In this document: in pieces, positions 8,359 to 38,445 of the stretch
Layout: every line of letters begins with the position of its first letter
Numbering within the stretch: position 1 is the first letter of the stretch
From: a virus
DNA: 64,000 nt
Strand: one strand, 5' to 3'
IMG/VR virus record: IMGVR_UViG_3300045988_177018
Coordinates: 49,928-113,927 of that record
Notes under the pieces: generated by a model
Told to the model about the DNA's origin: nothing
Database searches by the model: none
The model's input: the letters and a program-made list of their open reading frames with translations, nothing else
Translations under genes and position numbers: made by a program

Positions 8359-8676
8359 TTAGGCTCCTGCCTGAGCGGTGTCGTTTTTGACTACGAGCAT
8401 GTATTCGTCAACCAGTTCCTTGAGTTCCGGATTCTGTTCCGGACTGATGTCCACGCCAAGCTTCGGGTTCTTGTAGAACGCGTAATTCGGTTTCGCCGCA
8501 ATGGACAGGCTCAGGTCTTCAACCTCCCACTTGTCTCCCGTACCACGGTTCAGATTGAGGAACATGGCCCGTGCGAACCATTCCTTCCCTTCCGAGTCGG
8601 TGACTTTAATCATTGGTTGAATCTTATGGGTGATGTCGGCTGTGAGGCGTTTGCCCGGTATGATGATTTTCGGCAT
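8359..8676 (-). CDS. Hypothetical protein
   Basis: 105-aa ORF, coupled to the upstream gene. Confidence 0.45.
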   Translation of the reverse strand: MPKIIIPGKRLTADITHKIQPMIKVTDSEGKEWFARAMFLNLNRGTGDKWEVEDLSLSIAAKPNYAFYKNPKLGVDISPEQNPELKELVDEYMLVVKNDTAQAGA

Positions 8677-8677
8677 C

Positions 8678-9205
8678 TCAATCCTCCTCGTATGCGAACA
8701 TGACGTTCATATGGCTGTGCTGCAAAGCCTCTCCCAGAGGGGTTTTGCTGTGGGAGCGGTGACGGTACGCTTCGATATACCAATCCTCGAACGGGAAGTC
8801 CTCTCCGTTCTGGACTTCGCTGAGCTTCACCCAGCGGGAAGACTCTTTGGCACGCAACGCTTTCGGGGTCGTATAGCCGTCCCTATCGTCCATCCCGTGC
8901 TTGTAGTTCTCTCCGGCGTCGAACAGTTTCCCGACCAGATATTTTCCATCGGTGCGCCAGAGGATGAATCGGGAGCAGATGTCCAATGAACGGACTGAGA
9001 CGATGCTGTCGAACGGGATGATGACCTTGCCGTCGTTCTGTTCCGCATGTTTGACGATTTCGTCCAGCATGCTGTCCGCTTCGCGCCAGTTGTAGCGGAT
9101 GATGGTGTTCTTGTCGGGTTTGACGCTCGCTTTGCCGATGAGGTCGGATTCCGTGCTGATTCGCATGAATACCGCTCGTCTGTCCATGAGTGTTGTTTCC
9201 GTCAT
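8678..9205 (-). CDS. Hypothetical protein
   Basis: 175-aa ORF. A conserved promoter motif lies just upstream (9222..9242). Confidence 0.5.
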   Translation of the reverse strand: MTETTLMDRRAVFMRISTESDLIGKASVKPDKNTIIRYNWREADSMLDEIVKHAEQNDGKVIIPFDSIVSVRSLDICSRFILWRTDGKYLVGKLFDAGENYKHGMDDRDGYTTPKALRAKESSRWVKLSEVQNGEDFPFEDWYIEAYRHRSHSKTPLGEALQHSHMNVMFAYEED

Positions 9206-9221
9206 GGTATATCCTTACTCT

Positions 9222-9242
9222 TATGTGACTAATTCCAGTATA
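9222..9242 (-). promoter_or_regulatory. Conserved promoter/leader motif copy (TATACTGGAATTaGTCACA, minus orientation)
   Basis: Match to the about 17-copy motif. About 20 bp upstream of the 9205 start. Confidence 0.5.
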
Positions 9243-9265
9243 GTGGTTTGCGTAAAATATGTCCA

Positions 9266-9285
9266 AATACTGGAATCGTTCACAC
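9266..9285 (+). promoter_or_regulatory. Conserved motif copy in opposite (plus) orientation, forming an inverted pair with 9222..9242
   Basis: aaatactggaatcgttcacac. It faces into the 3' end of the minus-strand gene 9280..9813. Confidence 0.35.
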
Positions 9286-9813: not shown

Positions 9814-9900
9814 GACCTCATATTACCATATGTGGACAAACCCAATATAACGCGAGAGTGTTTAAAGGTAGGCGGGGAATCAACCCCAGCACCTTGGCAA

Positions 9901-10410: not shown

Positions 10411-10416
10411 TGCGGC

Positions 10417-11107: not shown

Positions 11108-11133
11108 GTGAATGTGGCTAATTCCAGTATAAC
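11108..11133 (-). promoter_or_regulatory. Conserved promoter/leader motif copy
   Basis: gtgaatgtggctaattccagtataac. Confidence 0.5.
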
Positions 11134-11551: not shown

Positions 11552-11636
11552 GACCGACCTCTAATCCATCTGATGGTGCGAATACTCCCAGTATAACAGA
11601 ACAGGGCTTGAGGGAAAACCCATAGCCCTGTTCCCG

Positions 11637-12692
11637 TCAAAGACCGTGCTTGGTCAGATACTTATTGGAGATAATTTTAAAGCAACGGTTGCCGCCAAGC
11701 TCGTTATACAGGTCGTCGCTCAACCGTTCACCCGCTTTCGCATGCCAGACGATTCCTTCATCCAACATGTCGCGGTTCGCGTTGCCGCGCAGACCGTCCA
11801 CTTTGGCAATCATGTCCATCACATCGCCGGTCGGCTTCCACTCGGCCTCGTCCAACAGTGGGACGGCATTGTCGAGCATGGCTTTCGGCCAATCCTCGCG
11901 GTCGAGTTTCGCATTGTCATGCCATACGGCGAACACGAATGGACGATAGGAGCCAAGCTTCAACCTGTTGCTGTTGACACTTGGGCCGCACAGCTCGAAC
12001 TGGCAGACCATGCCTTTCTCCAACGCGTCAACCAATCCGGTTTTCACCGCCACTTGCATGTTCGTGCAGTCCGACTTCAGCTCCCAATTGCGAGAGTAGA
12101 CGTGTACCGTATCATCCATGTCACGGTAGATTGTGGTGCTGGTACCGTCCACTTTCACGGTTGGCGTCCACGCAATCCGTTTGATTTCATCCCAATACGC
12201 GGTGAGATTCTGCACTCGCGTAGCATCCGACTTGGAGCATGGCGCATTGAACACGCCAACCATATCCCCGCCTTTCAAAGGCGGTAGTTCCTCGAATTTC
12301 CACACGTCCGCCTGTAAGGTGATATCAGTGCCGACCGGAGTATCCTCCGGCACGCCAATAGCAGAGAGCGGCATGACCAAACCCTGACTGTATACGCCTC
12401 GCAGTCTTGCGGTCTTCAACACGTGTCCGGTGATTTCGCGTTCTTCGCCGGTAATCGTGTTGGACACTGGCACGGTGCGCTGCCCACGTTTCTGCAATTC
12501 CGCATACCGTGGGTCGTCGGCGGGCAGCATGGAGTCGATTTCGTAATAGGCCACATGGTCGCCGGGTTTCAATCCCATGTCCTTGCCGACTACGACAATC
12601 CATCCTCCGATTTTCGCTTTCTCGATACGGTCTGCATCCTTGATTGGGTACACGCCTTCAACGGCTTGCACGCTTACCATTTTTCGAACCAT
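11637..12692 (-). CDS. ATP-dependent RNA ligase family protein (nucleotidyltransferase KxDG motif)
   Basis: 351 aa. OB-like N-terminus KDADRIEKAKIGGW..GDHVAYYEIDSMLP is typical of phage/bacterial RNA ligases. Motif I KVDGT. Confidence 0.55.
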   Translation of the reverse strand: MVRKMVSVQAVEGVYPIKDADRIEKAKIGGWIVVVGKDMGLKPGDHVAYYEIDSMLPADDPRYAELQKRGQRTVPVSNTITGEEREITGHVLKTARLRGVYSQGLVMPLSAIGVPEDTPVGTDITLQADVWKFEELPPLKGGDMVGVFNAPCSKSDATRVQNLTAYWDEIKRIAWTPTVKVDGTSTTIYRDMDDTVHVYSRNWELKSDCTNMQVAVKTGLVDALEKGMVCQFELCGPSVNSNRLKLGSYRPFVFAVWHDNAKLDREDWPKAMLDNAVPLLDEAEWKPTGDVMDMIAKVDGLRGNANRDMLDEGIVWHAKAGERLSDDLYNELGGNRCFKIISNKYLTKHGL

Positions 12693-13572: not shown

Positions 13573-13596
13573 TTATGTGAACGCCCCCAGTATAAC
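13573..13596 (-). promoter_or_regulatory. Conserved promoter/leader motif copy
   Basis: ttatgtgaacgcccccagtataac. Confidence 0.5.
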
Positions 13597-13604: not shown

Positions 13605-13946
13605 TTAAGAAGACAAACCAACCCCCTCGTAAGCCAGCATGTCAGCCAGCCCATCCTCACCCAATGCTCGCAGCCGGTTCGCCACCCCGTATCGTTGGTT
13701 CCAACAGCGGACGAGCGTATCGGCTTCAACACCGTATGCCGCCCATAAGGTCGGCAAAAGCGAGCAAGGCTGTTCGTGGACGATTCCATAGCGGACGCCG
13801 CGCCGGAAATCGCGGTCGAACACGAGATGCACAGCGCCGTCGCAGAACGGGCATGATGCAAGATTCACCATTTTTTGGGTGGGGATGCCCGGTATTTCAA
13901 TGCCGGGAGGAACCACCCTCTCCTTTCCTTTTAAGTCTTTTTTCAT
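13605..13946 (-). CDS. Lar-family restriction-alleviation-like zinc-ribbon protein
   Basis: CPFCDG...C and C-terminal WNQRYG resemble the Lar family signature (CPFCGG ... AWNRR). The start could be 13946 or 13871. Confidence 0.4.
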   Translation of the reverse strand: MKKDLKGKERVVPPGIEIPGIPTQKMVNLASCPFCDGAVHLVFDRDFRRGVRYGIVHEQPCSLLPTLWAAYGVEADTLVRCWNQRYGVANRLRALGEDGLADMLAYEGVGLSS

Positions 13947-15465
13947 TATACGCGCATAGTGATATAATCTAATCATGTCCCAGAAGGTCGTGATAGAACG
14001 TGTTGTGATACGGGGAGCCGCCCCGTATGTGGGCATGTGCGCGGCCTCGGACGGACGGCAAATCCCCTTGTATTCGACCAACCCCGACATAGTGATGCGT
14101 TGGCTGTGCGACGGGTGGCGTTGCCGATACAACCAGTTGCGTTCCCGTAGAGCCAAATGGGATAAAAACCTTGGCATAAGCATTCCGTTGGGCGGGAAGC
14201 CGGACATGCGCTCCGACCGTCAGGTAAGACTGGAATGCTCGTGGCTCGCGGCCATCCCCGCAATGGTGCTGCAATCCCCGAACAGGATAGAGAACACGGA
14301 CTGGTGGAGCGCGAACAAACGTCGCAAAACGTTGAAGAAGAAGCATAGGAACCCGGGCATGACGCCCGGGTTCAAAAAACGGCGTGACGACCTGTATTTC
14401 GTCTGCTGGCACAACAAGGGCGCGAACGCGAACTACCGGCAGTTGAACCGGCATCACGGCGAAGTCGTCATCACCGGACAGAACCCCAGCGCATATCGTC
14501 TGGACGGCCAGCCGTGCCGGTACAGCATCCACATCCGCGTCCGCGTCAGCCAACCCATCCGCGACTATACGAGCGTCGGAGTGAACTGGACGAAACGAAC
14601 GCTCGTGTTCGTCAACGACCCGTTGCCGATAAACCGAGAACGCACCGGCGCGATGGTCGGATTGGACAGGGGTTGCGTGCATACGCTCGCCACGTCCGAC
14701 AATCGTTTCATCGACCTCCCCAAAGACCGGTTGAACCATATCGACAGGGAGATACGCCGCCGTCAGAAGGCTCAGGCGCGACGAATCGCCATGTCCGGCG
14801 AAACCGTCAAACAATACCGTCGCCACGCGAGCCGCACCTACGAGCGCACCGGTCGGGAAATCAGCCGACTGTACGCGAAGGCGCACCGCATCATAGACGA
14901 CTGGCAGCACAAGACCACCAGCATGCTCGTCCGCGAATACGACGTCATCGTATTGGAAGACCTCAACCTGCAAGGCATGAGCCGCAAAGCCAAGGCGAAA
15001 CCCGACCCGGACAGGCCGGGCGCGTTCCTACCCAACGGACAGTCGGCGAAACGTGGACTCAACCGTAGCCTACGCGCCGCAAGCCTCGCCGGAATCGTCA
15101 GCAAACTCGAATACAAGACCCGACTGACCGGACGAAACCGTCTCATACTCGTCAACCCCGCGTACACGTCGCAGACATGCAGCAAGTGCGGGCATTGCGC
15201 CAAGGAGAACCGCAAAAGCCAAGCGGACTTCGAATGCGGGCAATGCCACGCGCGCATGAACGCCGACTTGAACGCGGCCAACAACATCCTCGAACGGGGA
15301 TTGAACCATCTCCTCGGCTTGGACGAAGCCGGGCACGCCGAAACGGAGCCAGACGCCCAACCCGCCTATCGCGGGAAGGACGCTTCCGCCATGACGTGCG
15401 AAACCTCAACACGATAACGTGTTGGAATCCCGGTGTTTCAACACCGGGAGGACGTCAATTCGCAT
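13947..15465 (+). mobile_element. IS200/IS605-family element, TnpB-only (IS1341-like); boundaries approximate
   Basis: Carries a TnpB-like gene. Right-end hairpin cccggtgtttcaacaccggg at about 15431..15450. No tnpA. Confidence 0.5.
14206..15417 (+). CDS. tnpB: TnpB-like RNA-guided endonuclease (IS605 OrfB family), intact RuvC I/II/III and zinc ribbon
   Basis: GLDRG, LEDLNLQGM, NADLNAANNI, CSKCGH..CGQCH. The ORF is open from 13975 (480 aa) behind a gatataat -10. The N-terminal half is atypical for TnpB. Confidence 0.6.
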   Translation: MRSDRQVRLECSWLAAIPAMVLQSPNRIENTDWWSANKRRKTLKKKHRNPGMTPGFKKRRDDLYFVCWHNKGANANYRQLNRHHGEVVITGQNPSAYRLDGQPCRYSIHIRVRVSQPIRDYTSVGVNWTKRTLVFVNDPLPINRERTGAMVGLDRGCVHTLATSDNRFIDLPKDRLNHIDREIRRRQKAQARRIAMSGETVKQYRRHASRTYERTGREISRLYAKAHRIIDDWQHKTTSMLVREYDVIVLEDLNLQGMSRKAKAKPDPDRPGAFLPNGQSAKRGLNRSLRAASLAGIVSKLEYKTRLTGRNRLILVNPAYTSQTCSKCGHCAKENRKSQADFECGQCHARMNADLNAANNILERGLNHLLGLDEAGHAETEPDAQPAYRGKDASAMTCETSTR

Positions 15466-19121: not shown

Positions 19122-19808
19122 TCAGTCCTCGAATCTTGGCATGGTGTGCGCGGCGTCCAAGTATTCGACGCCGCCGTGAACCCAGTAGCGGGCAGTGATG
19201 GTGGCGGGGTCGTTCATTTCAGCGAACCAGTCGGCCAGCTCCTCCAAGCCCATGCCATCGGCGGTCTGCCAGAGGTCGTCGATGAACGCGTTCCAATCGG
19301 CTTGACTGGCGTCCTCGCGTTCGGACAATGCGAAATACCGTTCGCGCAACCTTTCGTCGGGGAGCACGTTGCCAGATAACTGTCCGTCCGTCAGCCACGA
19401 CCAATCGGCCACGCAGATTGCGCCCAAATCAGCTGAGGAAATCTCATAGATGCTGCTGTCCGTGCCGGGCCAGCAGCGGTCTTTGACGAAGATGATGGTG
19501 TCCATGGGTCGGCACGCCTCCTTGATGATGTCTTCCACGCCGTCCTTGTAGTCGTGGTCGTCTTCGAAGTCGTAGTACAAGCCTTCAATCAGAGGCTCCT
19601 TGTTTCGGTAGTCCTCGTCGGAGGCGTATATGGTGTACAGTGCGACCGTTGGATATTCGTCCTGCACGCCGATGGCGATGACAGGGCCGTCGCACATGAC
19701 CGTTTTAAGGGTATCGTCTTCGCGCATGCAGCTCACGATGTCAGCGTCCTCGACTTCGGGACGGGCGTACAGTTCGGACATCAGTCTGTAGAGGTTGATG
19801 TTCTGCAT
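19122..19808 (-). CDS. Hypothetical protein
   Basis: Start at MQNINLY. Upstream extension MLYWERSHK is the motif 19834..19857 read in frame. Confidence 0.45.
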   Translation of the reverse strand: MQNINLYRLMSELYARPEVEDADIVSCMREDDTLKTVMCDGPVIAIGVQDEYPTVALYTIYASDEDYRNKEPLIEGLYYDFEDDHDYKDGVEDIIKEACRPMDTIIFVKDRCWPGTDSSIYEISSADLGAICVADWSWLTDGQLSGNVLPDERLRERYFALSEREDASQADWNAFIDDLWQTADGMGLEELADWFAEMNDPATITARYWVHGGVEYLDAAHTMPRFED

Positions 19809-19833
19809 GGTGTTCTCCTTTTTCAACTGGGCT

Positions 19834-19857
19834 TTATGCGAACGCTCCCAGTATAAC
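19834..19857 (-). promoter_or_regulatory. Conserved promoter/leader motif copy
   Basis: ttatgcgaacgctcccagtataac. Confidence 0.5.
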
Positions 19858-20017
19858 ATAACAAACCTGAAGAGACAAACCACCCTATGCGTTCACCAAC
19901 AGCCTATCCAACACCGGTTTGTCAAGGGTTCACCCACCTCTAAGGCGGGTGGTGAATTGACATAATCTTATGCTATACTGGTATTCAGTCGTACTCATCA
20001 GGAACGAGGTGATTGCT

Positions 20018-20431
20018 GTGAAACTTGAATCGAATCATCATTCGGTGTTCCTCATGCATTATCATCTCGTGCTCGTCGTGAAATACCGTCGCAAAGTCTT
20101 TGATGACACGATTTCCAATCGCGCACGGGAGATTTTCGAGTACATCGCACCCAAGTACGGCATCACGTTGGAGGAATGGAATCATGACGTGGACCACGTG
20201 CATGTCCTGTTCCGCGCCCAGCCGAAGACCGAACTGTCGAAGTTCATCAACGCGTACAAGAGCGCCAGCAGCCGCCTGTTGAAACAGGAGTTCCCCGGAA
20301 TCAGATGCAAGCTTTGGAAGGAGTGTTTCTGGAGCCGTAGCTTCTGCCTGCTCACCACGGGCGGCGCACCCGTCGAGGTGATACGCAAATACATCGAGAA
20401 CCAAGGCGAGAAGAGCCGAACCCAAGCATGA
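20018..20431 (+). CDS. tnpA: IS200/IS605 Y1 (HUH) transposase TnpA
   Basis: HYHLVLVVKYRR and HVHVLF HUH motifs. GTG start at 20018 is likely; the ORF is open from 19970. Confidence 0.8.
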   Translation: MKLESNHHSVFLMHYHLVLVVKYRRKVFDDTISNRAREIFEYIAPKYGITLEEWNHDVDHVHVLFRAQPKTELSKFINAYKSASSRLLKQEFPGIRCKLWKECFWSRSFCLLTTGGAPVEVIRKYIENQGEKSRTQA

Positions 20432-21597
20432 AGACACATATCGCCGTGAGGTTCCGCGCCTATCCCACCGAAGAACAGGCACGGCTGATAGACCGCACCA
20501 TCGGCTGCGCACGCTTCGTATACAACCTCATGCTCGAAACCCGCATCGCCCACTATCAGACCACATGGGAATCATGCCGTCCCACGCCCGCCCTGTACAA
20601 GGACACGTACCCGTTCCTACGCGAAGTGGATAGCTTCGCTCTTTGCAACGCGCAACTCGCATTGGAGAAGGCGTACAAGAGGTTCTTCGAGGACAGGAAA
20701 ACAGGTTTTCCGAAGTACAAGTCGAAACGTCGGGGCAGGAAGACATACACGACGAATCTGTCCCACGGCAACATCGAATTGGATGACAAGGCAAGGAGGT
20801 TGAAACTACCCAAGCTCGGATGGTTGGCGGTCCGCCAACACAAGCGTATCCCCGACGATTGGAAACTGAAATCCGTCACCGTGGAGCATTGTCCTTCCGG
20901 AAGATACACCGCGACAATCCTTTTCGAGTACGAGACCCAAATACCCGAAAAAGTGAGGCCAGTGAAGACTGTCGGATTGGACTACGCGTCTCACGGCCTG
21001 TATGTTTCCAGTGACGGGGAGCACGCCGAATATCCGGGCTACTATCGAAAAATGCAGGACAAGCTCGCCAGAGAGCAACGCAAGCTTTCCCATATGGTCA
21101 AAGGTTCCGCCAACTGGCGTAAACAGTGCAAGCGGGTCGCCCGACTGTATGAGAAGACCGCCAATCAAAGACGCGACTACCAGCATAAGAAAGCCAACAG
21201 GATTGTCGCATCATACGATATGGTCGGCGTGGAGGCTCTGAGCATGAAAAGCATGATGAAGAAACCCGAGCCGAAACCAGACCCCGAACGTCAGGGACAT
21301 TATCTTCCCAATGGTCGCAAAGCCAGAAAAGGTTTGGCTAAAAGCACGTCGGACAACGGGTATGGCATGTTCTGCACCATGTTGGAATACAAGCTCGCCC
21401 GTCAAGGCAAACGGTTGGTTCATGTGGGCAAATGGTATCCGTCCAGCCAACTATGCTACGACTGCGGTTACAAGAATCCTCTGGTCAAGGATTTAAGTAT
21501 CCGCGAATGGGCGTGCCCATCATGTGGAGTGTTGCATGACCGTGACGTGAACGCCGCCCGGAATATTCGGGATGAGGCAATGAGAATCATCGAATAG
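20428..21597 (+). CDS. tnpB: TnpB RNA-guided endonuclease (IS605 OrfB)
   Basis: Classic N-terminus MKTHIAVRFRAYPTEEQ..RFVYN. C-terminal CYDCGY..CPSCG zinc ribbon and RuvC III (DRDVNAARNI). Confidence 0.85.
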   Translation: MKTHIAVRFRAYPTEEQARLIDRTIGCARFVYNLMLETRIAHYQTTWESCRPTPALYKDTYPFLREVDSFALCNAQLALEKAYKRFFEDRKTGFPKYKSKRRGRKTYTTNLSHGNIELDDKARRLKLPKLGWLAVRQHKRIPDDWKLKSVTVEHCPSGRYTATILFEYETQIPEKVRPVKTVGLDYASHGLYVSSDGEHAEYPGYYRKMQDKLAREQRKLSHMVKGSANWRKQCKRVARLYEKTANQRRDYQHKKANRIVASYDMVGVEALSMKSMMKKPEPKPDPERQGHYLPNGRKARKGLAKSTSDNGYGMFCTMLEYKLARQGKRLVHVGKWYPSSQLCYDCGYKNPLVKDLSIREWACPSCGVLHDRDVNAARNIRDEAMRIIE

Positions 21598-21603
21598 CAC
21601 GAC

Positions 21604-22281
21604 TCATAAATCGTGCGAACCACAGGGCATGTGGGGATAGCCTGTCGATACTGAACCCATTGGGGTTCTTGAGCAGGAAGCCCCGCCTCCACAGGCGGGG
21701 GAGAATGTCACTTCCTTCCGCATGGCCTCATACAGCATGTTCTCCTGAGTCGCGTCGGACAAGGCGCGATGCTCCTCCACGTCGCCTATACCGTAATCGC
21801 GGATGAGCGTGGCGACCTTATGGCTCGGTTTTTCAGGATGGATTTTCCGGCTCATTTCCAACGTGTCCAAAAACCGGTGAGGGAAGAAGAACATGCCGCC
21901 GTCCACGGTTTGCATGGCCGCGTCTAAGAAACGCAGGTCGAAGGTCGCGTTGTGGGCCATGATGATGGTTCTCGGGCCAAGCCAACGGTCGAATTCGCAT
22001 ATCGCCTGACTTACGTTGGGTTGTCCGATGACCATGCTGTCGTTGATTCCGGTGAGGGAGGTGATGTGTTCGGGGATATGCTGGTGCGGGTCGATTAATT
22101 GTTCGTACCTGTCCACGAGTTTCCCTTCGTGGATTTTCACGGCTCCGATTTCGATGAGTTTGGCACCGTCCGATGGTTTGAATCCGGTGGTTTCGGTGTC
22201 CACGACCGCGTAATCGTAGAGGGGTGTTTCCAGCGGGTCGATTCTTCGGGGGTCTCGGCTTTGGCGTTTATCCCAACTCAA
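21604..22281 (-). CDS. DnaQ-like 3'-5' exonuclease (DEDDh), 3' end fused to the IS right end
   Basis: VVDTETTG, HNATFD, HRALSD. The last about 37 codons are encoded by IS right-end sequence. Confidence 0.65.
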   Translation of the reverse strand: MSWDKRQSRDPRRIDPLETPLYDYAVVDTETTGFKPSDGAKLIEIGAVKIHEGKLVDRYEQLIDPHQHIPEHITSLTGINDSMVIGQPNVSQAICEFDRWLGPRTIIMAHNATFDLRFLDAAMQTVDGGMFFFPHRFLDTLEMSRKIHPEKPSHKVATLIRDYGIGDVEEHRALSDATQENMLYEAMRKEVTFSPACGGGASCSRTPMGSVSTGYPHMPCGSHDL

Positions 22282-22305: not shown

Positions 22306-22329
22306 ATGTGTGGACGCTTCTACTATAAC
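22306..22329 (-). promoter_or_regulatory. Variant copy of the conserved promoter/leader motif
   Basis: atgtgtggacgcttctactataac. Confidence 0.4.
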
Positions 22330-23662: not shown

Positions 23663-23698
23663 ACCCCATATTATACGCATTATGCGTATAATTGTCAA
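23663..23698 (-). promoter_or_regulatory. hicAB promoter (TTGACA-17-TATAAT) with a perfect 9-1-9 palindromic operator in the spacer; leaderless start
   Basis: Bottom-strand read: TTGACA attatacgcataatgcg TATAAT atggggt ATG. Palindrome tatacgcat-t-atgcgtata at 23672..23690. Confidence 0.6.
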
Positions 23699-25755: not shown

Positions 25756-25778
25756 TTTGTGTGGACAGTTCCAGTATA
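25756..25778 (-). promoter_or_regulatory. Conserved promoter/leader motif copy
   Basis: ttgtgtggacagttccagtata. Confidence 0.5.
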
Positions 25779-25913: not shown

Positions 25914-26747
25914 TCAGCCGTGCAACGCGGTGATGATTTCGTCAGCGGCCTTACGGACATGCTCGGCAGTGGAGCGTACAAGCTTGGGGTCAGCATCGCT
26001 CCACCCCGCCACATAGCGGATGGAATACTCGCCGGTGTCCATTCCCATGTATCTAGCCACCACATAGGCGACGCTTTCCGCCTCGGTCTCGTAGATGCCG
26101 CGATGCCGACCGTATTCACCTTCCGGCAACCCCTGATGGAGGAGCATGTGGGCCGTTTCGTGCAGGATGGTCTTGGCGTCCTGCCTCGGACTGTTCTTCG
26201 CGTTGAGCATGATTCGTCTGCTTCCATCCATCGTGGTGTAGCCTTTGACGTCCCTCCCCATCGACTCATGGCCCACCCGCCAATGTTTGGATTCGAGCCA
26301 AGCGGTCATACGTCCGACGAGGCCGAGCGCGTCTGCGCCTTCAAGCTCGGACGGCTTCATCTGCTCGATGGGGTCGGTCTGGGGCACGTCGAACACCGTC
26401 AAGATGGGATACCAGACTTTTTGGATAGGGTCGCCGTTCTCGTCTAGCTGTGGGTTGCCGTCTTCGTCCTTGACGGTTCTAGTGCTGAAGCCGAAGATTT
26501 TCATACCGTGTTCGCCTTTGCGCACGACGCGCCCGCGCGTCTGCCATTGGCGGAATCCGGCGACCAGCGACGAGTTGCCGTTCGATTGAATGAGCATTAG
26601 CAGGATGTTGTTCCAGCTGTATTGGTGGAAACGTCCCATGAAATCGAGGTAGCGCTGCCAAGTGCCGGAGTCCCGTAGTTCCTTCACGCCGGTTTCGATG
26701 TCCTTGCGCAGTTCTTCGATTCGTTCCCTGTGTTGCTTGTCTGCCAT
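25914..26747 (-). CDS. ardC: ArdC-like antirestriction protein (ssDNA-binding N-domain + HExxH metalloprotease-like C-domain)
   Basis: HQYSWNNILLMLIQ (ArdC-N/DUF1738 signature) and ILHETAHMLLH. Confidence 0.7.
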   Translation of the reverse strand: MADKQHRERIEELRKDIETGVKELRDSGTWQRYLDFMGRFHQYSWNNILLMLIQSNGNSSLVAGFRQWQTRGRVVRKGEHGMKIFGFSTRTVKDEDGNPQLDENGDPIQKVWYPILTVFDVPQTDPIEQMKPSELEGADALGLVGRMTAWLESKHWRVGHESMGRDVKGYTTMDGSRRIMLNAKNSPRQDAKTILHETAHMLLHQGLPEGEYGRHRGIYETEAESVAYVVARYMGMDTGEYSIRYVAGWSDADPKLVRSTAEHVRKAADEIITALHG

Positions 26748-27073: not shown

Positions 27074-27099
27074 TTGTGTGTGTGAACAATTCCAGTATA
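27074..27099 (-). promoter_or_regulatory. Conserved promoter/leader motif copy
   Basis: ttgtgtgtgtgaacaattccagtata. Confidence 0.55.
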
Positions 27100-27970: not shown

Positions 27971-27992
27971 TTGTGTGAACAATTCCAGTATA
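27971..27992 (-). promoter_or_regulatory. Conserved promoter/leader motif copy
   Basis: ttgtgtgaacaattccagtata. Confidence 0.55.
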
Positions 27993-28986: not shown

Positions 28987-29008
28987 TTGTGTGAACAATT
29001 CCAGCATA
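28987..29008 (-). promoter_or_regulatory. Conserved promoter/leader motif copy
   Basis: ttgtgtgaacaattccagcata. Confidence 0.55.
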
Positions 29009-30553: not shown

Positions 30554-30575
30554 TTATGTGGACATTTCCAGTATA
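30554..30575 (-). promoter_or_regulatory. Conserved promoter/leader motif copy
   Basis: ttatgtggacatttccagtata. Confidence 0.5.
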
Positions 30576-30620: not shown

Positions 30621-30770
30621 CTACGAGTCTTCGCCCCCATCTTCTCCGAGCGCCTGTTCAACCAACAATCTGACCGCATCGTTCCACGAGACTTCATGTC
30701 GCTCGGCATACTGCATGGTCAGCCGGTACAGTTCGGCGGGCAACATGACCACACGGTTCATGTTAGGCAT
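30621..30770 (-). CDS. Small ribbon-helix-helix-like DNA-binding protein (candidate regulator)
   Basis: MPNMNRVVMLPAELYRLTMQYAERHEVSWNDAVRLL: beta-strand then two helices, as in CopG/Arc. Confidence 0.35.
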   Translation of the reverse strand: MPNMNRVVMLPAELYRLTMQYAERHEVSWNDAVRLLVEQALGEDGGEDS

Positions 30771-30774: not shown

Positions 30775-30954
30775 TCAACTCCAGAACAGGTGGGCGAGCG
30801 AGTCAGCGTCGATATACCGGCGTCGTCCGATTTTGTAGGTGCGTATGCGACCGGCATTCAGCAGGTCGTATATGTGCTGGCGTGAGCAGGAGAGGTAGGC
30901 CATCGTGTCGGCGATAGTGAGGATGGCTGGCAGTTCCTTGGCTTTGGTTCTCAT
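30775..30954 (-). CDS. Excisionase/AlpA-like helix-turn-helix DNA-binding protein
   Basis: LTIADTMAYLSCSRQHIYDLLNAGRIRTYKIGRRRYI. Confidence 0.5.
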   Translation of the reverse strand: MRTKAKELPAILTIADTMAYLSCSRQHIYDLLNAGRIRTYKIGRRRYIDADSLAHLFWS

Positions 30955-30971: not shown

Positions 30972-31361
30972 TTAATACCGGTATTCGCAACCGGAATCCA
31001 CAAACTCGTGCTCGCCATCGCTCCACAGCACGGACACTATGGTCGAAGGGTCGTTCAGGTCGATGAAAAACGCGGCAAGCTCGTCCACTGACAAGCGGGA
31101 GAACTCCTCGCCCACAGCTTTATAGAATTCGTCCCAAGCGGCTTGGTCGGCGTCCGATTCCACGAGCGTGGAGAACCGTTCCGCCAGTTGCGTGGATGGG
31201 AGTGTGGCATGGGAGAAGCTTTCGTCCGTAATGTCGAGCCAAGCGTTCAAGCACCTGTCGGCCAGTTCGCCTACCGGAAAAGTCAGCATTCTCGTGGTAG
31301 TGCCCGTCCACTTGGTTTTCTTCAGAAAACTGACTTCGACGGCATTGGTCTTGTGTTCCAT
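30972..31361 (-). CDS. Hypothetical protein
   Basis: 129-aa ORF. Confidence 0.45.
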   Translation of the reverse strand: MEHKTNAVEVSFLKKTKWTGTTTRMLTFPVGELADRCLNAWLDITDESFSHATLPSTQLAERFSTLVESDADQAAWDEFYKAVGEEFSRLSVDELAAFFIDLNDPSTIVSVLWSDGEHEFVDSGCEYRY

Positions 31362-31392: not shown

Positions 31393-31414
31393 TTGTGTGA
31401 ACAATTCCAGTATA
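31393..31414 (-). promoter_or_regulatory. Conserved promoter/leader motif copy with TTGACG-16-TATACT
   Basis: ttgtgtgaacaattccagtata. -35 TTGACG (bottom strand) lies 16 bp from TATACT. Confidence 0.55.
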
Positions 31415-32225: not shown

Positions 32226-32247
32226 TTGTGTGAACAATTCCAGCATA
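32226..32247 (-). promoter_or_regulatory. Conserved promoter/leader motif copy with TTGATG-17-TATGCT
   Basis: ttgtgtgaacaattccagcata. Confidence 0.55.
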
Positions 32248-32757: not shown

Positions 32758-34137
32758 CTACTCGGCGTCCTGCATGGACTTTCCGGCGGCATGTCCGGCG
32801 ACCATGCTGTTCAGCAACGCTTTCAGGTCGATGCCTAAGGATTGAGACAATCCCTCACTCAACTGGCTCACACTGTTCACCGTGTCGCCCACGAGCTTCG
32901 TGTTGTTTCCGTCGCCGTACATGGTGATGTGGTCAACCTTGGTGAGCGGTTCGGCGGCGGCTCGAATCATGTCGGGGAGAATCTGAATGTACTGTTGGGC
33001 GAGGATGTACGTGTTGTTCATCGCATTGTAGGCTTGGCCTTGGGCGCGGATTGCCTCGGCTTCGCCGACACCCTTCGCCTGTGCGGCGGAACCCTCGGCC
33101 TTGCCTTTGACCTCGGTCGCGTGTGCGTCCGCGTCGGCTGTGGATTGGATGGCCTGAGCCTCCTGCTGGCGTAGGTACAGTTCCGCGTCGGCGTGTTTTT
33201 GGGTTGTGTACATTTGCGCGTCGGCCTGCTGTTCGGCGGCGTAACGGTCGGCGTCGGCCTTCTTGCAGATGGTCGCGTTCAGTTTTTGCTCTTCGATTTC
33301 AGCGTTCTTCTGTTCGAGCACTGCCCTCTTCTCGGCGGCGGCGATTTCAGCCTCCTGCTCCTTGACCTTAAGGGTCTTGGACTGTTCGGCGCTGGTGATG
33401 CCCTTCACCGCGTCGGCCTCGGCTTGCGCCTTGTCAGCGATGGACTGGAGTTCCGCACGCTTCAGGTCGAGCTGGTTCTGGCGGACGGCCACATCCTGTT
33501 CCGCGTTGATGGACGCGAGTTTCGCGTTTCGGCTGATTTCCGCCGCCATCTCCGCGCCCATGTTGGCGATGACGCTTTGCCGGTCGGTGAAGTCCTGAAT
33601 GTTGAACGTGGTCAATTGCAGTCCGAGCCGTTCCATGTCCACACGCGCGGATTCGGCAACAGTTTCGGCAAATGTGTCCCTGTTCTCCATTAGTTCCTTC
33701 AACTCGGTCTTGCCGATGACCTCGCGAAGCTTACCTAGAAGCACCTGAGTGACGTCCTTCTCCATGCGCTCCTTGGACTGGTTGAGATAGTTCTTGGCGG
33801 CGTTCTCCAACGCTTTGACTTGTTTGCCGTTCTCGTCCACGGTCGTGGTTTCCGACGCTATCTGGAAGTTCGCCACGGCGTTCACGTCGATGAGGATGGC
33901 GTCCTTGGTAGGAATCGCCGTATCGGTTGACAGCAGGGATTGCACCGCGCCCAAGCTCAGCCAGTCCACGCGCATGATGAACGGGATGATGAACGCGCTT
34001 CCGCCTGAGACGAAGCGTCTTCCGCCCGGTCCGGTGATGACCATGACCTTGTTGGCGGGGCAGACCTTGTAGCTTGCGGTTGCGAGAAGTGCGACAAGTA
34101 CTACCGCTACCGCGCCGATAATGAGTGTTGTCGGCAT
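32758..34137 (-). CDS. Flotillin-like SPFH/band-7 membrane protein
   Basis: N-terminal TM, SPFH core, long Ala/Gln/Glu coiled coil. Confidence 0.7.
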   Translation of the reverse strand: MPTTLIIGAVAVVLVALLATASYKVCPANKVMVITGPGGRRFVSGGSAFIIPFIMRVDWLSLGAVQSLLSTDTAIPTKDAILIDVNAVANFQIASETTTVDENGKQVKALENAAKNYLNQSKERMEKDVTQVLLGKLREVIGKTELKELMENRDTFAETVAESARVDMERLGLQLTTFNIQDFTDRQSVIANMGAEMAAEISRNAKLASINAEQDVAVRQNQLDLKRAELQSIADKAQAEADAVKGITSAEQSKTLKVKEQEAEIAAAEKRAVLEQKNAEIEEQKLNATICKKADADRYAAEQQADAQMYTTQKHADAELYLRQQEAQAIQSTADADAHATEVKGKAEGSAAQAKGVGEAEAIRAQGQAYNAMNNTYILAQQYIQILPDMIRAAAEPLTKVDHITMYGDGNNTKLVGDTVNSVSQLSEGLSQSLGIDLKALLNSMVAGHAAGKSMQDAE

Positions 34138-34188
34138 GTTTTTCCTTTCTCTTTTTTGTGGGCGAACCCACTATAACAAAACTCGTTT

Positions 34189-35529: not shown

Positions 35530-35894
35530 TTGTCGGAATTCCCCTTATCCGCGATATGCTTCCAATGTTTTCTCAACTCCGCGTAGCATCGGTGCTCTTC
35601 CTCCAATCGGCTTGCCCGACCGTCGCATGGGTGGCTGGCCCAATGGTAGATGCAACGTTCGATGCGTTTGTATCCGAGGATTTCCGGTCCGAGATTGTGG
35701 CTGCGGAAGATGCTGGCGGGCTTCTCTCCCCGCAGGTATCGGAGGGTCACTTCGTCTTGGAATTCAGTGGTGAAGATAATCCACCAGCCGCGACGGGTGT
35801 TGCGCACGTCCGCGACTTCTGGTCGTTTCGCCAACTCCAAGGCTTCCTTGGAGGAGAGTTTTTTCGATAGGCTTGGTTTAGTCTTTTCAGCCAT
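35526..35894 (-). CDS. Hypothetical basic protein
   Basis: 122 aa, coupled to dnaB. Confidence 0.45.
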   Translation of the reverse strand: MAEKTKPSLSKKLSSKEALELAKRPEVADVRNTRRGWWIIFTTEFQDEVTLRYLRGEKPASIFRSHNLGPEILGYKRIERCIYHWASHPCDGRASRLEEEHRCYAELRKHWKHIADKGNSDK

Positions 35895-35913
35895 TTCTGA
35901 CGGTTCCTTTCTT

Positions 35914-37725
35914 TTAGATTGCGTCGGGGAATTGTTCGGTCGGGGAGAATTTCAGAAGCTTCACCGTCGCCCCTTCACGCCACTTGTTCCACGCCTTGAC
36001 GGTGATTCCTACGATGCGTCGGCGGCTTGTGCGGTCGCTGTGCGCTCCACGCTTGTTGATGTCGAACAGTGTGTTTCGCAACACGAGGATGGGATTCCCT
36101 TCGTCAAGGTTCGCACCGGTGGCGAGCATGTCGAAGAACCTTTCGCACGCCTCCCCGTCGATTTCGGAGAACGTCCAGTAGATGAGCGCGGCCATGCTGA
36201 CGGACATGAGATGGTTGCTTTTCGCGTAGAACGCGCTGGCCTGTCGTAGCGTGTCCTCCAATCGTGGAGTGTTCTCGATGAAAGACAACAGTTCGTTGCG
36301 GGTCGGGGAAGCGCTGTTCAGGCATGCCGCTTCGACGCCCAATTGTTCGCTTAGATAGATGGAACGGGCGACGGTGGCGAGCTGTTTAGTGTTGGAACGG
36401 CCTTGTAGTTCGAGCACGTTCGCCATGGTTCGTGTCTTGCCCGCGTCCATGGTCTCCTGTGTTTCCTCCGGCAGTCCACGGATGACGAGGGTGCGGAACG
36501 GCACGCCGGATTCGACGCAGGCGAGGAGCCTGTGCTGTCCGTCCAACAGACGTCCCGTGCTGCTGAATTTGATTGCCTCTCCGTTCATCTGCCATGCCTG
36601 TTGCGCCATGGTGCGGGCGAACAGTTCGACCTGTTTGCGGCTCACGTTGCGGTTGTTGGTGTTCGAGCCGAGCATTTCCTTCGCCATGTCGGGCGTGATG
36701 GTCTCGACTCGTCCGGTGATGGTGTCCCAATTGGTTTCGCCGGTCGTGGCGGCACGGTTTGGAGTGGCTTTCTCCACCGGTTCCTCCGGTTTCAGGTGGA
36801 TAAGCAGAGTGGTTTTCGGCTTGCCGGAATGCCGTCTGGTTTCGGCTTTCGGAGGCTTCACTTCGACCGTCTCGTATTGTTCCGTCGTGTCCGCCTGATT
36901 CGCGGCGAAGGCGTACGCGGTCATGGTGAACGCGAGCATGAACCTGTCCACCGCCCGCTTCGGCGGGAACATGCCCATCTCGTCCACGATGCGGGAGATG
37001 TTCGACGGGGTGATGTACGGGCAATGGTTGACGACCGTATCCAATCCCGTCTCGTATTCCCTCTGTCCGAAGAATACGAACGGCGCTAGGGGAGTGCGGG
37101 CCTGAGCCATGCCACGGTAGCATTGTCCGACCTCATCGTAGATTTCGTTGATTTTACGGAGTGAGGATACGGCGTCGATACCGTTCCCGTTCACGGCTTC
37201 CGAATAATCGTATCCGCTGCTTTTGAACAGGCGCTCATTGTATCGGCTGGTGTCTCGCAGTCCGGGGCATCGTCCGAAGCCGAGCGTTGTCCCGTTGCCT
37301 TTCGTACCGTCCGCTTTTTTCAGATTCCCCTTGTTGAACCAGTATGCCTCCATGTCGGCTGAGAACGGTTTCGCCGTTACCTGTTTGGTGAGGTTGCGTC
37401 CGGTCATGCGACCGAAGTATTCGCCGTCCATGTTGACGAGCACGGGAAGTCCGGTGCCGATGAAAATGTTGTCTGGAATCAGGTCGTACCATTCCGGCAT
37501 GATGTCGTGGCCGTCCATGTAGTTGAGGATTCGTCCTACGCTGGCACGGTCGATGAACACGGTGTCGGCTTTGGCGAACAGGTCGATGTCGAGGGTCAAC
37601 GCTTTGCATACGGGTTGCAGGTCATGCTGAATCATGGTCATGAACCGTGGCTCGGTTTTCATGTCTTTGCTGGACATTTCACTTCTTTCAAGTGTTTCAG
37701 CATACGGTAGGTTTTCGGAGCGCAA
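35914..37725 (-). CDS. ParB-like nuclease (ParB/Srx) domain protein with large unknown N-terminal domain
   Basis: 603 aa. LLDGQHRLLA ParB-N motif at about aa 385. Confidence 0.55.
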   Translation of the reverse strand: MRSENLPYAETLERSEMSSKDMKTEPRFMTMIQHDLQPVCKALTLDIDLFAKADTVFIDRASVGRILNYMDGHDIMPEWYDLIPDNIFIGTGLPVLVNMDGEYFGRMTGRNLTKQVTAKPFSADMEAYWFNKGNLKKADGTKGNGTTLGFGRCPGLRDTSRYNERLFKSSGYDYSEAVNGNGIDAVSSLRKINEIYDEVGQCYRGMAQARTPLAPFVFFGQREYETGLDTVVNHCPYITPSNISRIVDEMGMFPPKRAVDRFMLAFTMTAYAFAANQADTTEQYETVEVKPPKAETRRHSGKPKTTLLIHLKPEEPVEKATPNRAATTGETNWDTITGRVETITPDMAKEMLGSNTNNRNVSRKQVELFARTMAQQAWQMNGEAIKFSSTGRLLDGQHRLLACVESGVPFRTLVIRGLPEETQETMDAGKTRTMANVLELQGRSNTKQLATVARSIYLSEQLGVEAACLNSASPTRNELLSFIENTPRLEDTLRQASAFYAKSNHLMSVSMAALIYWTFSEIDGEACERFFDMLATGANLDEGNPILVLRNTLFDINKRGAHSDRTSRRRIVGITVKAWNKWREGATVKLLKFSPTEQFPDAI

Positions 37726-38285
37726 CCGGAGGGATTGTGTTCCTCCTGCCGATACTGTTCTTCGATTTCATCCCAATGTCTGACGATGGTTTCCCAGTCG
37801 GCTGACACGTCGCCCATGAGGCTCAGATACGCTCGGGCGGCGGGCACCATGTCGAACATTGCAAGTATCCGGCGTATGTCGCCGGGGTCTATCGGCGTGT
37901 CCTCGCATCCGTCTTTCCGTACGCCGTTCGCGGTCATGGTGATGCCGGTGAGTCGTTGGACGATGGCGAGGGAGCTGAGTCCCACGTCTCCGTTGGCGAG
38001 CCATTCCGAGAAGGATTCCAAGGGGAGGACTGTCGTGCAATTCATGTCCGTAATCGTTGGCGCGAGACCGGTGACGAGTCTTGTCTTCGGGACTGTCAGA
38101 ACGTATAGGGGACGTTCGTCTTTGTCGGGCATCCGCCCGTGTATGAGGTGGCCGTTGACGAATACCGTGGGTTGCTCGTCGTCGTAGATGCGGATGGTGC
38201 AGGTGTCTTCGTCCAATGTTTCAGGCTTCCATCCAGCGAAGGCTTTCGTCCATGTAGTCTCTGATTTTCCGGAGGTCTTCCGCAT
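37659..38285 (-). CDS. Hypothetical protein
   Basis: 208-aa ORF. Its 3' end overlaps the ParB-like gene start. Confidence 0.4.
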   Translation of the reverse strand: MRKTSGKSETTWTKAFAGWKPETLDEDTCTIRIYDDEQPTVFVNGHLIHGRMPDKDERPLYVLTVPKTRLVTGLAPTITDMNCTTVLPLESFSEWLANGDVGLSSLAIVQRLTGITMTANGVRKDGCEDTPIDPGDIRRILAMFDMVPAARAYLSLMGDVSADWETIVRHWDEIEEQYRQEEHNPSGCAPKTYRMLKHLKEVKCPAKT

Positions 38286-38445
38286 TGTTGACGACGACGC
38301 TGGATGCGATTCCGTCTCCGATGGTAGTGAACATGAGTTCCTTGCCGAAGGCGGTGGATTGGATGATGGTGAGCTTGTTGTCGGACTCGTTGTCGATGAC
38401 TTGCAGGGTGTTTGTATTGCCGTTGCAGTATTCGCGTGCGCTCAT
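38221..38445 (-). CDS. Hypothetical small protein (weak)
   Basis: 74-aa ORF overlapping the previous gene by 65 bp. Confidence 0.25.
   Translation of the reverse strand: MSAREYCNGNTNTLQVIDNESDNKLTIIQSTAFGKELMFTTIGDGIASSVVVNNAEDLRKIRDYMDESLRWMEA

Follow-up and report, generated by a model that had tools for sequence, protein, structure and literature searches.

What is the long run of small genes that separates the dnaB gene from the type IV secretion operon in this stretch of DNA, and is it the leading region of a plasmid, stocked with anti-defence genes, as the initial annotation proposed? Our analysis of the whole 64,000-nucleotide stretch (the window) identifies the run as the variable cargo region of a conjugative megaplasmid of gut Bifidobacterium. 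We consider it probable that the gene run is a hypervariable cargo array of a pMP7017-family megaplasmid that acts as a regulon of establishment and accessory cassettes, analogous to that of p576 and pLS20.

The presumed plasmid origin was borne out. The element is conjugative and encodes a RepA_C protein with iterons, ParA, a VirB4-like ATPase, a cell-wall hydrolase and an FtsK-like coupling protein; two FtsK/SpoIIIE-like translocases are encoded. Judged by sequence, its source is a divergent lineage within the pMP7017 family of Bifidobacterium megaplasmids: the backbones are syntenic, and the backbone proteins are mostly ~35-65% identical to those of pMP7017 (VirB4 66%, DnaB 54%, ParA 57%). 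This lineage is linked to the B. pseudocatenulatum/catenulatum group.

All genes from 38445 down to 5865 do lie on the minus strand, save three plus-strand IS200/IS605 genes, and the minus-strand run continues past 5865, across the T4SS genes, as far as position 130. Within it, an array of motif-led units spans 34175 to 5865, flanked by dnaB of the backbone on one side and by the type IV secretion operon on the other. The segment 34189..38445 (minus strand) is outside the array; this motif-less backbone head of the block holds the DnaB helicase gene (34189-35529) and ORFs of 122, 587-603, 185 and 74 aa. The 587-603-aa backbone protein has a DGQHR-type C-terminal domain. The ORF at 35914-37725, previously read as a ParB-like nuclease-domain protein, has no match in Pfam, NCBIfam or PDB, but does carry an LLDGQHRL motif and fall into a PHROG family of unknown function; nothing was found for the 74-aa ORF (38221-38445). 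At the other end of the array, a terminator-like hairpin with a T-run (5592..5629, minus strand) would insulate it from the VirB4-like operon.

We found 15 minus-strand copies of a motif (window consensus tGtTATACTGGaAttgttCACA.Aaaa), which head 15 transcription units and lie 18-40 nt upstream of the start codons (n = 15). The conservation of this promoter is beyond chance, with 12 matches at ≤3 mismatches versus 0 in 100 shuffles, but the idea that every ORF has its own copy was overstated, since 15 copies serve ~45 ORFs in units of 1 to 9 ORFs each. Its parts are a TTGnnn -35 element, an extended -10 element (TGnTATACT) and a conserved box of 13-20 nt, GGAATTGTTCACA, which in the form GGAATTGTTCACAyAAAA surrounds the transcription start. 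The promoter is predicted to be of a family-specific, sigma-A type. The box lacks the symmetry usual for the sites of dimeric repressors. Neither the motif nor its regulon is new, both having already been described for the pMP7017 family: in B. breve, a 34-bp motif of pMP7017 that overlaps the -10 element was first spotted at six highly expressed genes. Bifidobacterial chromosomes lack it, and 56 genes are predicted to be driven by its 19 copies (Dineen et al. 2024, PMC10832533). RNA-seq in the same study found several motif promoters to be highly active in the established pMP7017 host. We counted 24 copies in pMP7017, 15 on the plus and 9 on the minus strand, which also head a tRNA array, Sec-like genes and surface-protein regions, with ssb among the motif-driven genes.

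The units, all on the minus strand, are described from the dnaB side onwards. The most degenerate motif copy (34157..34175) heads a unit encoding an SPFH/Band-7 membrane protein (32758..34137), and the copy at 32229..32247 heads 31708-32196 and 31476-31691. An exact consensus copy (31396..31414) heads a unit whose layout is like that of acr-aca operons. Its first gene (30972..31361) encodes an acidic 129-aa protein, a candidate inhibitor by inference only, whose predicted model (pLDDT 85.6; the one cassette modelled) had no structural neighbours. There follow a 59-aa HTH_17 (excisionase/AlpA-like) DNA-binding protein (30775..30954; precomputed Pfam PF12728), which is probably the Xis-like HTH of the initial annotation, and a 49-aa protein (30621..30770) in which we read a ribbon-helix-helix-like signature by eye. 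The next copies are at 30557..30575 (heading 30217-30525 and 29402-30133), at 28990..29008 (heading a 308-aa HEAT-like gene, 28037-28963) and, again with the exact consensus, at 27974..27992 (heading an acidic 107-aa gene, 27622-27945, and 27234-27530). A third exact copy (27081..27099) heads an 85-aa ORF (26790-27047) and then, as second gene of the unit, the ArdC-type anti-restriction protein (25914..26747). This protein combines an ssDNA-binding N-domain with an HExxH metalloprotease domain (motif HETAH), and both its matches, ArdcN (E 3.8e-12) and Peptidase_M78 (E 1.5e-8), are over the gathering score.

The copy at 25760..25778 heads 25359-25721, an ATP-grasp-like gene (24072..25337) and further downstream genes. 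The ATP-grasp call stands on its homologues, which are annotated as R2K-clade ATP-grasp proteins and carry PF14243/PF18299 (34% identity to the pMP7017 ATP-grasp), while its own Pfam score is sub-threshold (E 1.5e-3). The HicAB pair passes Pfam thresholds; the HicA toxin gene (23465..23698) has a promoter of its own with the perfect consensus, at 23698-23670, and is followed by that of the HicB antitoxin (23052..23468). Equally firm is the DnaQ-like exonuclease (21604..22281), a DEDDh/RNase_T 3'-5' enzyme (E 6e-30) under the copy at 22309..22327; it has 225 aa here versus 194 aa in relatives, and its 3' end adjoins an IS insertion. The longest unit, 19859 to 15455 and originally through the Lar-like gene, is headed by the copy at 19837..19855. 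It includes a strongly acidic protein of 234-245 aa (19122..19859; net charge about -33), the C-terminal domain of which is paralogous to 30972-31361, and a gene previously read as a HAD phosphatase or nucleotidase (15455-16132). The latter has the DxDxT motif but no Pfam or NCBIfam match; its weak PHROG matches include polynucleotide kinase (E 2e-5), and it weakly resembles the phosphatase part of the phage enzyme. The Lar-like zinc-ribbon ORF (13605..13946), cut off from its unit by an IS insertion, is a weak call (E 0.01; 16.5 bits versus a cut-off of 28.6), and it matches the pMP7017 Lar only marginally. Both IS200/IS605-family elements that had been noted are present, on the plus strand, and score above Pfam thresholds: a TnpB-only element (13864..15458; tnpB 13975-15417), an insertion that separates the HAD-like from the Lar-like gene, and an element with tnpA (19970-20431) and tnpB (20428-21597) at 19907..21711, which has ~94% identity to copies from B. 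longum megaplasmids.

Beyond these insertions, the copy at 13576..13594 heads 12900-13526, 12709-12903 and an RNA ligase gene (11637..12692). The ligase was called correctly: it scores above the Pfam threshold, has OB and nucleotidyltransferase domains, matches PHA02142 (OB domain) and RNA_ligase, and is 61% identical to the pMP7017 homologue. Further copies lie at 11577..11595, at 11113..11131 (heading 10819-11088, 10417-10809 and 9901-10410) and at 9831..9849. The last one (9224-9242) forms a hairpin with an inverted partner at 9266-9284 (9224..9284; z -2.55) and heads the final unit, 9205 to 5865. Here two LRV/HEAT-repeat proteins (5865-7046 and 7064-8317; 5865..8317) mark the end of the array, a position conserved in relatives.

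ArdC is the sole securely identified anti-defence gene of the array. About 30 ORFs in the array do lack any annotation, as had been noted, but a search of the unknown ORFs with HMMs (PHROGs, Pfam, PADLOC) gave no anti-defence annotation for these proposed candidates; four ORFs had PHROG matches and most had none. With pMP7017 the island shares just a quarter or so of its ORFs, and ~30 are accessory, having no homologue there.

The same architecture recurs in the family, where all 42 motif copies in four relatives (L015, L016, L018 and L019) are on the gene strand and the arrays of three (L016, L018 and L019) end in LRV, followed by VirB4. The motif copies are the points at which cassettes have been gained or lost and have changed places. 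In L010, an additional cassette that brings a motif copy of its own sits just upstream of the position of 9831..9849 and ends right before the copy that follows. The ATP-grasp gene of L016 has moved to a motif-bounded site, landing at 11577..11595. Synteny-block ends, as a raw coincidence, fall within ~65 nt of motif centres.

Taken as a regulon, the array would be built of ~15 modules, each with promoter and box first and then one to nine small genes, and tied together by the common promoter-plus-box. It would most likely be run by a putative plasmid-encoded factor that binds the box. Expression would be coordinated and might overshoot on entry into a new host, a timing that we infer. The cargo (ArdC, the Lar-like ORF, the R2K ATP-grasp, the DEDDh exonuclease, HicAB, the acr-aca-like unit and the ~30 unknowns) resembles establishment and conflict functions, and anti-defence roles beyond ArdC are conjectural; the RNA ligase and the Pnkp-phosphatase-like HAD protein suggest RNA repair. 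The repeated promoters may double as boundaries for module gain, loss and shuffling between plasmids. Against the regulon reading, the HTH_17 and RHH-like genes are lineage-specific, with no pMP7017 homologue, whereas the motif is in both lineages. A tightly repressed model with a transient burst is unlikely because several pMP7017 motif promoters are highly active in the established host.

Could the array nevertheless be a strict leading region? Such regions adjoin oriT on the first-transferred side and are encoded on the T-strand (Samuel et al. 2024, PMC11541004). The array would then enter the recipient first and be expressed early to disarm defences, the transferred strand (the window's plus strand) being the template, and oriT would be expected immediately past the array's downstream end, to the left of ~5.9 kb. 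The array is indeed co-oriented with the downstream T4SS genes, as the F-like order of leading genes, oriT and tra predicts, and the cargo of ArdC, a toxin-antitoxin pair and numerous small unknowns is fitting. However, neither the window nor its left flank nor pMP7017 as a whole has a recognisable relaxase or oriT, and the MOB-suite verdict for the family is non-mobilizable. The one striking palindrome at the predicted oriT place derives from an IS200/IS605 end and is missing in close relatives. Frpo-like single-strand promoter hairpins are lacking at 13 of the 15 promoters, and the array has no gene for SSB, PsiB or an orphan methylase. The motif is also used on the opposite strand, in three plus-strand copies in the window and 9 of 24 in pMP7017, ssb included, and its promoters are active in an established host. 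Finally, the two FtsK/SpoIIIE-like translocases leave double-stranded transfer possible, which, if true, would make strand polarity irrelevant. This reading is thus weakened, and we regard it as unlikely.

The steady-state activity of the pMP7017 promoters would fit with ordinary accessory cargo, in which a strong promoter was copied along with gene duplications and insertions, the box is a promoter-strength or mRNA-leader element, and there is neither a dedicated regulator nor an establishment or anti-defence role. The tRNA, Sec-like and surface-protein settings of the pMP7017 motif agree with this, as does the lack of a detectable defence link for most cassettes. Yet the 13-nt box downstream of the -10 element is kept across lineages whose backbone proteins have diverged to 45-65% identity, which suggests selection on a putative binding site. 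Moreover, ArdC, the Lar homologue (in pMP7017), ssb, the RNA ligase and methylases are grouped behind the motif, and cassette turnover is high, as is typical of arms-race genes; we find this explanation rather improbable. We give very little credence to a DNA-metabolism or replication module of a phage-plasmid-type element. It could claim the DnaB with which the block opens, the exonuclease, the RNA ligase with its phage-type OB domain and the four PHROG-matched ORFs, and its list also counts the ParB-like protein and the nucleotidase. But no virion, terminase or integrase gene occurs in the window. The element does carry a T4SS together with plasmid partition and replication genes, and most array ORFs have no PHROG match.

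How does the proposed cassette regulon compare with known systems? Its unit at 31414-30621 recalls acr-aca operons in having a strong promoter, a small acidic protein and then HTH and RHH genes, but this is a likeness of layout only, with no sequence or structural similarity to known anti-CRISPR or Aca families. Proteobacterial leading-region islands (Samuel et al. 2024, PMC11541004) likewise consist of co-oriented, transposase-interrupted small genes with anti-restriction, toxin-antitoxin and many uncharacterised families. Unlike the array, where no oriT is recognisable, they adjoin oriT, are T-strand encoded and often have Frpo promoters, SSB and PsiB, whereas the window promoter is of an ordinary duplex type that is used on the other strand too. 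Also comparable is the establishment regulon of p576 and pLS20, which came to light through sequences conserved in front of ardC (Val-Calvo et al. 2021, PMC8708921). There too, ardC and several operons under common conserved promoter/operator sequences make up a regulon, on Gram-positive T4SS plasmids whose cargo is mostly unknown and differs among relatives. However, those Bacillus sequences are unrelated and from a different phylum, and in p576 the RHH protein Reg and transient derepression were demonstrated experimentally, in contrast to the steady-state activity in pMP7017. A further close system is the pMP7017 regulon itself (PMC10832533), from the same plasmid family with a syntenic backbone and the same motif architecture (ATGYTATACTGAATATGTCCACATAAAA in pMP7017 versus tGtTATACTGGAATTGTTCACAcAAAA in the window), with many copies heading small-gene units and with an RNA ligase, a HAD-like protein, an ATP-grasp and an exonuclease in both. 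As a separate lineage, the window alone has ArdC, HicAB and SPFH, whereas the pMP7017 arrays hold CRISPR-Cas I-E, a WhiB regulator and a clear Lar. The published motif was presented as a transcription-factor site dispersed over the plasmid, and cassette turnover at its copies was not described (PMC10832533); the family-wide array, and the gain, loss and shuffling of cassettes at motif copies, are new here.

The window belongs to a large conjugative plasmid. Among its genes, Pfam searches identified a RepA_C initiator (56891-57880), a VirB4/TcpF-like AAA_10 ATPase (2837-5497), a three-domain cell-wall hydrolase (130-1986) and a ParA. Positions 1-15497 are 100% identical to an 89.9-kb scaffold from a human-gut metagenome (ENA ERZ28660323 scaffold_123), on which the genes beyond the window's left edge include one for an FtsK/SpoIIIE-type coupling protein, followed by one for a second FtsK-like protein. 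When placed on this scaffold (record = window + 25963), the window runs 64 nt past the scaffold end; it probably derives from a sister assembly, or from the same plasmid circularly permuted. DNA-level matches to known plasmids were confined to IS elements. We found that the backbone proteins are collinear with those of pMP7017, a Bifidobacterium breve megaplasmid, and of its relatives in B. longum, with identities to pMP7017 in a tblastn map of 66% for VirB4, 54% for DnaB, 58% for a CpaE-like protein, 58% for an 886-aa ATPase and 57% for ParA; a 1333-aa membrane protein is 43-47% identical to its pMP7017 and B. longum relatives. This collinear block of homologous T4SS, dnaB and partition genes places the window in the pMP7017 family. 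Hundreds of metagenomic contigs have this backbone, the hydrolase alone accounting for 78 blocks. The names attached to related proteins, which lie on contigs of 190-255 kb, point to the B. pseudocatenulatum/catenulatum group. A VirB4 search of genome contigs gave no confirmed relative, and Rfam and tRNA scans of the window gave no matches.

The window Rep is 37% identical to the RepA of pMP7017, an initiator reported to be dispensable in that plasmid, and no RepB homologue was found within the window. A low-GC stretch just 3' of the RepA_C gene holds three perfect 21-bp direct repeats (AGTGTGGACTTTTCCCACCAA; 58031-58094) and a 10-bp x2.8 repeat (58136-58163), which are probably replication-origin iterons. 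Adjoining the replication and partition genes, a backbone protein (59959-60984) with a weak match to GmrSD_C/DUF1524, a His-Me finger nuclease family, is 52% identical to a DUF1524 protein of pMP7017. A further, conserved backbone block (44269-54820) encodes the CpaE/MinD-like ATPase, a 398-aa protein, the 886-aa protein (whose pMP7017 counterpart is annotated as an AAA ATPase), a pair of small membrane proteins and the 1333-aa protein. The N-terminal region of the last has weak similarity to proteins from Arthrobacter megaplasmids, including one with an A24 peptidase annotation. The block received no Pfam assignments, and may represent an uncharacterised secretion, pilus or mating-channel apparatus.

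The initial annotation described a long run of genes on a single strand. This layout is borne out and extends further: genes lie on the minus strand throughout from 38445 down to 130, the sole exceptions being three IS200/IS605 transposase genes, and orientation switches at about 38.45-38.5 kb. The domain calls made for this run divide into two groups. ArdC, HicA, HicB, the RNase_T/DEDDh exonuclease, the RNA ligase (which carries a phage-type OB domain in Pfam) and both IS elements score above Pfam thresholds, while the ATP-grasp, Lar-like, HAD and ParB-like calls rest on sub-threshold matches or motifs. The ATP-grasp protein is sub-threshold when searched alone, and its homologues are annotated as R2K ATP-grasp. 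The Lar-like ORF falls below the Lar_restr_allev threshold (16.5 bits vs a cut-off of 28.6, E 0.01), though the match covers profile positions 2-57 of 58, and it shares only 8 of 22 identities with the Lar of pMP7017. For the HAD call, the evidence is a DxDxT motif together with a weak PHROG hit to polynucleotide kinase. For the ParB-like protein (35914-37725), searches of Pfam, NCBIfam and PDB sequences gave no match to a ParB/Srx fold or to anything else, and the call comes from a DGQHR-type motif and a PHROG family without function only. What had been called an Xis-like HTH is probably the 59-aa HTH_17 gene at 30775-30954, which is present in metagenome gene calls.

The cargo part of this run is organised by a repeated promoter. 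Its 19-nt core (gene-strand sequence TATACTGGAATTGTTCACA) is present in 15 minus-strand copies between 34.2 and 9.2 kb, each 18-40 nt ahead of a start codon, and in three plus-strand copies at 38576, 61279 and 61748, for a window total of 18. The motif is strongly enriched, with 12 matches at <=3 mismatches vs 0 in 100 shuffles. When the copies are aligned, they yield the consensus tGtTATACTGGaAttgttCACA.Aaaa, an extended -10 element that usually has a TTG-type -35 at a spacing of 16-18 nt, and then an asymmetric conserved box, GGAATTGTTCACA, around the predicted start site. Because the 15 minus-strand copies define units of one to nine genes, the earlier statement that each ORF has its own promoter was overstated; ArdC, for instance, is the second gene in the unit led by the copy at 27081.

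This promoter motif is already known from pMP7017, where a 34-bp motif, AWAYATGYTATACTGAATATGTCCACATAAAAWA, overlaps the -10 element (TATACT...GTCCACA). It was first seen at six highly expressed genes, is present there in 19 copies predicted to drive 56 genes, is missing from bifidobacterial chromosomes and has been read as a transcription-factor site; its promoters are active in established pMP7017 hosts (Dineen et al. 2024, PMC10832533). In the window, the motif likewise overlaps the -10 element and precedes many genes. Rescanning pMP7017 at <=4 mismatches, we found 24 copies, split 15 to 9 between the strands and distributed all round the plasmid, with one directly 5' of ssb and one beside the repB/tRNA region. 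As to a regulator, those small proteins that are conserved in both the window and pMP7017 carried no DNA-binding signature, by eye or in Pfam. A 48-aa XRE-like ORF (32387-32527) was considered and rejected: it ends in a terminator hairpin, and it is probably a remnant, since it is sub-threshold against Pfam HTH families and is not conserved in pMP7017. The 560-bp gap 5' of the motif copy at 32229 also contains an AT-rich 9-bp tandem repeat (ATTATATTT x3.4) at 32302-32332. Within one motif-led unit, hicA has a perfect consensus promoter of its own (TTGACA-17-TATAAT, 23670-23698), so the HicAB toxin-antitoxin pair is probably expressed independently of the motif regulon.

Comparison across the family indicates that the array is retained as its contents turn over. 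Homologues in pMP7017 exist for only about a quarter of the island ORFs. We again found, in four additional lineages (ATP-grasp 93%, 77% and 60% identical), a long co-oriented array of small ORFs, with all 42 motif copies on the gene strand, and in L016, L018 and L019, the related loci that reach far enough, an LRV-repeat gene closes the array and VirB4 follows. Marker genes are arranged in different orders among the lineages. Between close relatives, differences start or stop at motif copies: locus L010 has an extra 412-bp module that opens with its own motif copy and stops just before the next one, the ATP-grasp gene of L016 lies at a site bounded by a copy of the type found at 11577, and several synteny blocks begin 14-65 nt from a motif centre. 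This coincidence of breakpoints with motif copies is suggestive. The family-wide architecture and the bounding of cassette differences by motif copies are additions to the published work. We consider the array to be best described as a promoter-led cassette array that belongs to the pMP7017-family motif regulon and represents a new divergent lineage. At one intergenic site, 9224-9284, a motif copy and an inverted partner at a distance of 23-25 nt make up an 18-19-bp hairpin, and in the related locus L007 a TnpB element (1085-2689) is inserted exactly at the equivalent hairpin; such a hairpin may be relevant to the single-strand, hairpin-guided targeting of IS200/IS605 elements.

Is the cargo an anti-defence island, as initially annotated? 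ArdC is the only secure anti-defence gene of the array. Its product (25914-26747) combines the ssDNA-binding ArdcN domain (PF08401, 46.9 bits vs a cut-off of 22.6) with a Peptidase_M78 domain (PF06114, 34.9 bits vs a cut-off of 22) that has an HExxH metalloprotease motif, HETAH in this sequence, making it a member of the ArdC family with predicted anti-restriction activity. The anti-defence flavour of the cargo, which comes from this one gene and from analogy, is plausible. In T4, RNA repair counters anticodon nucleases, and by analogy the RNA ligase and the HAD/Pnkp-phosphatase-like gene might act in RNA repair; the two are ~100 bp apart in pMP7017, and are separated by an IS insertion and a few ORFs in the window. 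The unit at 31414-30621 has an acr-aca-like layout, consisting of a motif copy, an acidic 129-aa protein (30972-31361), the HTH_17 gene and a 49-aa protein whose ribbon-helix-helix-like signature was recognised by eye. The acidic protein has about 39 homologue clusters, all without annotation, and has a fold domain in common with the strongly acidic protein at 19122-19859. Structure prediction had been suggested for each small ORF; carried out for this one, it gave a confident AlphaFold model (pLDDT 85.6, pTM 0.77) that is structurally orphan. PHROGs assigned a function to none of 17 unannotated ORFs, 15 of which had no match at all, and when ten cassettes were run through PADLOC, the exonuclease gave a generic DEDDh match and no defence-system components were detected otherwise.

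The IS insertions at 13864-15458 and 19907-21711 have remodelled neighbouring genes. The exonuclease, whose 3' end adjoins an IS, is 225 aa long in the window vs 194 aa in relatives, and the Lar-like ORF (113 aa vs 83 aa in relatives) is cut off from its promoter unit. Elsewhere in the array, a 12/24-nt tandem repeat (16536-16627) within the gene at 16136-16906 specifies an acidic repeat. The 256-aa product also has a Cys-rich segment at its N terminus and a hydrophobic stretch, and gave no family match.

An alternative is that the array is a plasmid leading region. The transferred strand enters the recipient 5'-first and a template is read 3'-to-5', so leading genes must point to oriT if the transferred strand is their template; oriT would then be expected to the left of ~5.9 kb, either in the gap that separates the array from the co-oriented T4SS genes or on the far side of those genes. 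Leading regions adjoin oriT on the first-entering side, use the transferred strand as template, are enriched in anti-defence, SSB, orphan methylase, SOS-inhibitor and toxin-antitoxin genes, and often have single-strand promoters of the Frpo/ssi type, long hairpins in which duplex -35/-10 elements are mimicked (Samuel et al. 2024, PMC11541004). In favour of this reading, the array is on the minus strand apart from the three IS genes, and ArdC and HicAB are present; the Lar-like match is weak. Several expectations specific to it fail. SSB, PsiB, methylase, ArdA and known Acr genes are lacking from the array; the motif also drives plus-strand genes, lies on both strands elsewhere and is active in established hosts. 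Single-strand promoters of the Frpo/ssi type are rejected, as template-strand ssDNA folding gave z-scores of -1.8 to +1.3, with no Frpo-like structure, at 13 of the 15 promoters; the two exceptions correspond to the inverted motif pair at 9224-9284 and a terminator hairpin. The "leading" label is thus unproven.

The search for oriT itself produced one candidate. A perfect 52-bp palindrome with 25-nt arms (5820-5871; folding z -6.6) extends over the stop codon of the final LRV-repeat gene, precisely at the place that an F-like geometry would assign to oriT. We rejected it as IS-derived because its core is 100% identical to sequence found ~100 nt 3' of TnpB genes in B. longum plasmids, the palindrome is similar to the hairpin at the right end of the TnpB element in the window itself, and the segment is missing or replaced in close relatives, the 222 bp that bear it being absent from L009 and L010. 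The palindrome looks like a symmetrised solo IS end (PATE-like). The conserved rest of the gap between array and T4SS genes holds a terminator-like hairpin only. No oriT or relaxase was recognisable in the window, its left flank or pMP7017. Pfam and NCBIfam searches of large unassigned and left-flank proteins returned no relaxase, nor did PDB sequence searches; a HUH-signature regex scan matched in antisense shadow frames only, real reading frames giving no match; searching for homologues of the 711-aa pMP7017 protein 3' of the FtsK pair returned close relatives without domains only; and no inverted repeats were found 5' of the FtsK gene. The gene annotations of pMP7017 list no relaxase, two papers on the plasmid mention neither relaxase nor oriT, and MOB-suite types the family as non-mobilizable. 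The pMP7017 family is nonetheless experimentally conjugative, and its proteins include a VirB4-like ATPase, cell-wall hydrolases and two FtsK/SpoIIIE-like translocases; given the two translocases, even single-stranded transfer is not certain. A family that conjugates with no recognisable relaxase or oriT exposes a basic gap; the way its DNA is processed, and the end that enters first, would decide whether the leading-region concept fits such Actinomycetota plasmids.

The promoter-led cassette array that we favour allows a more far-reaching proposal, which joins three ideas and which as a whole we regard as unlikely. The promoter-plus-box would be more than a regulatory site, acting as the functional unit of an integrase-free "promoter-cassette" exchange, in which homologous or template-switch recombination between ~30-bp repeats would swap ready-to-express anti-defence modules among bifidobacterial megaplasmids. 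A putative factor that binds the box would place a quarter of the plasmid under common control, as a single establishment regulon. Many dark ORFs among the ~30, such as the acidic family of 30972-31361 and 19122-19859, would encode new inhibitors directed at the restriction or CRISPR systems of Bifidobacterium. Such systems are largely the reason why bifidobacteria are hard to manipulate genetically, and bifidobacterial megaplasmids are, to our knowledge, the only known self-transmissible vectors of the genus. A catalogue of promoter-led exchanged cassettes would offer a focused search ground for inhibitors of bifidobacterial defences, and would also yield strong portable promoters.

Among known systems, the nearest functional likeness to the array is found in the establishment regulons of the Bacillus plasmids p576 and pLS20, which were recognised through conserved sequences 5' of ardC (Val-Calvo et al. 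2021, PMC8708921). A p576-type regulon has an autoregulated plasmid repressor with operators flanking the shared promoters, and is expressed transiently once transfer has taken place. No conserved regulator was found in the window, and the steady-state activity of the motif promoters in pMP7017 argues against the tight repression of a p576-type model. What the window has in common with a p576-type regulon is the shared promoter-plus-box.
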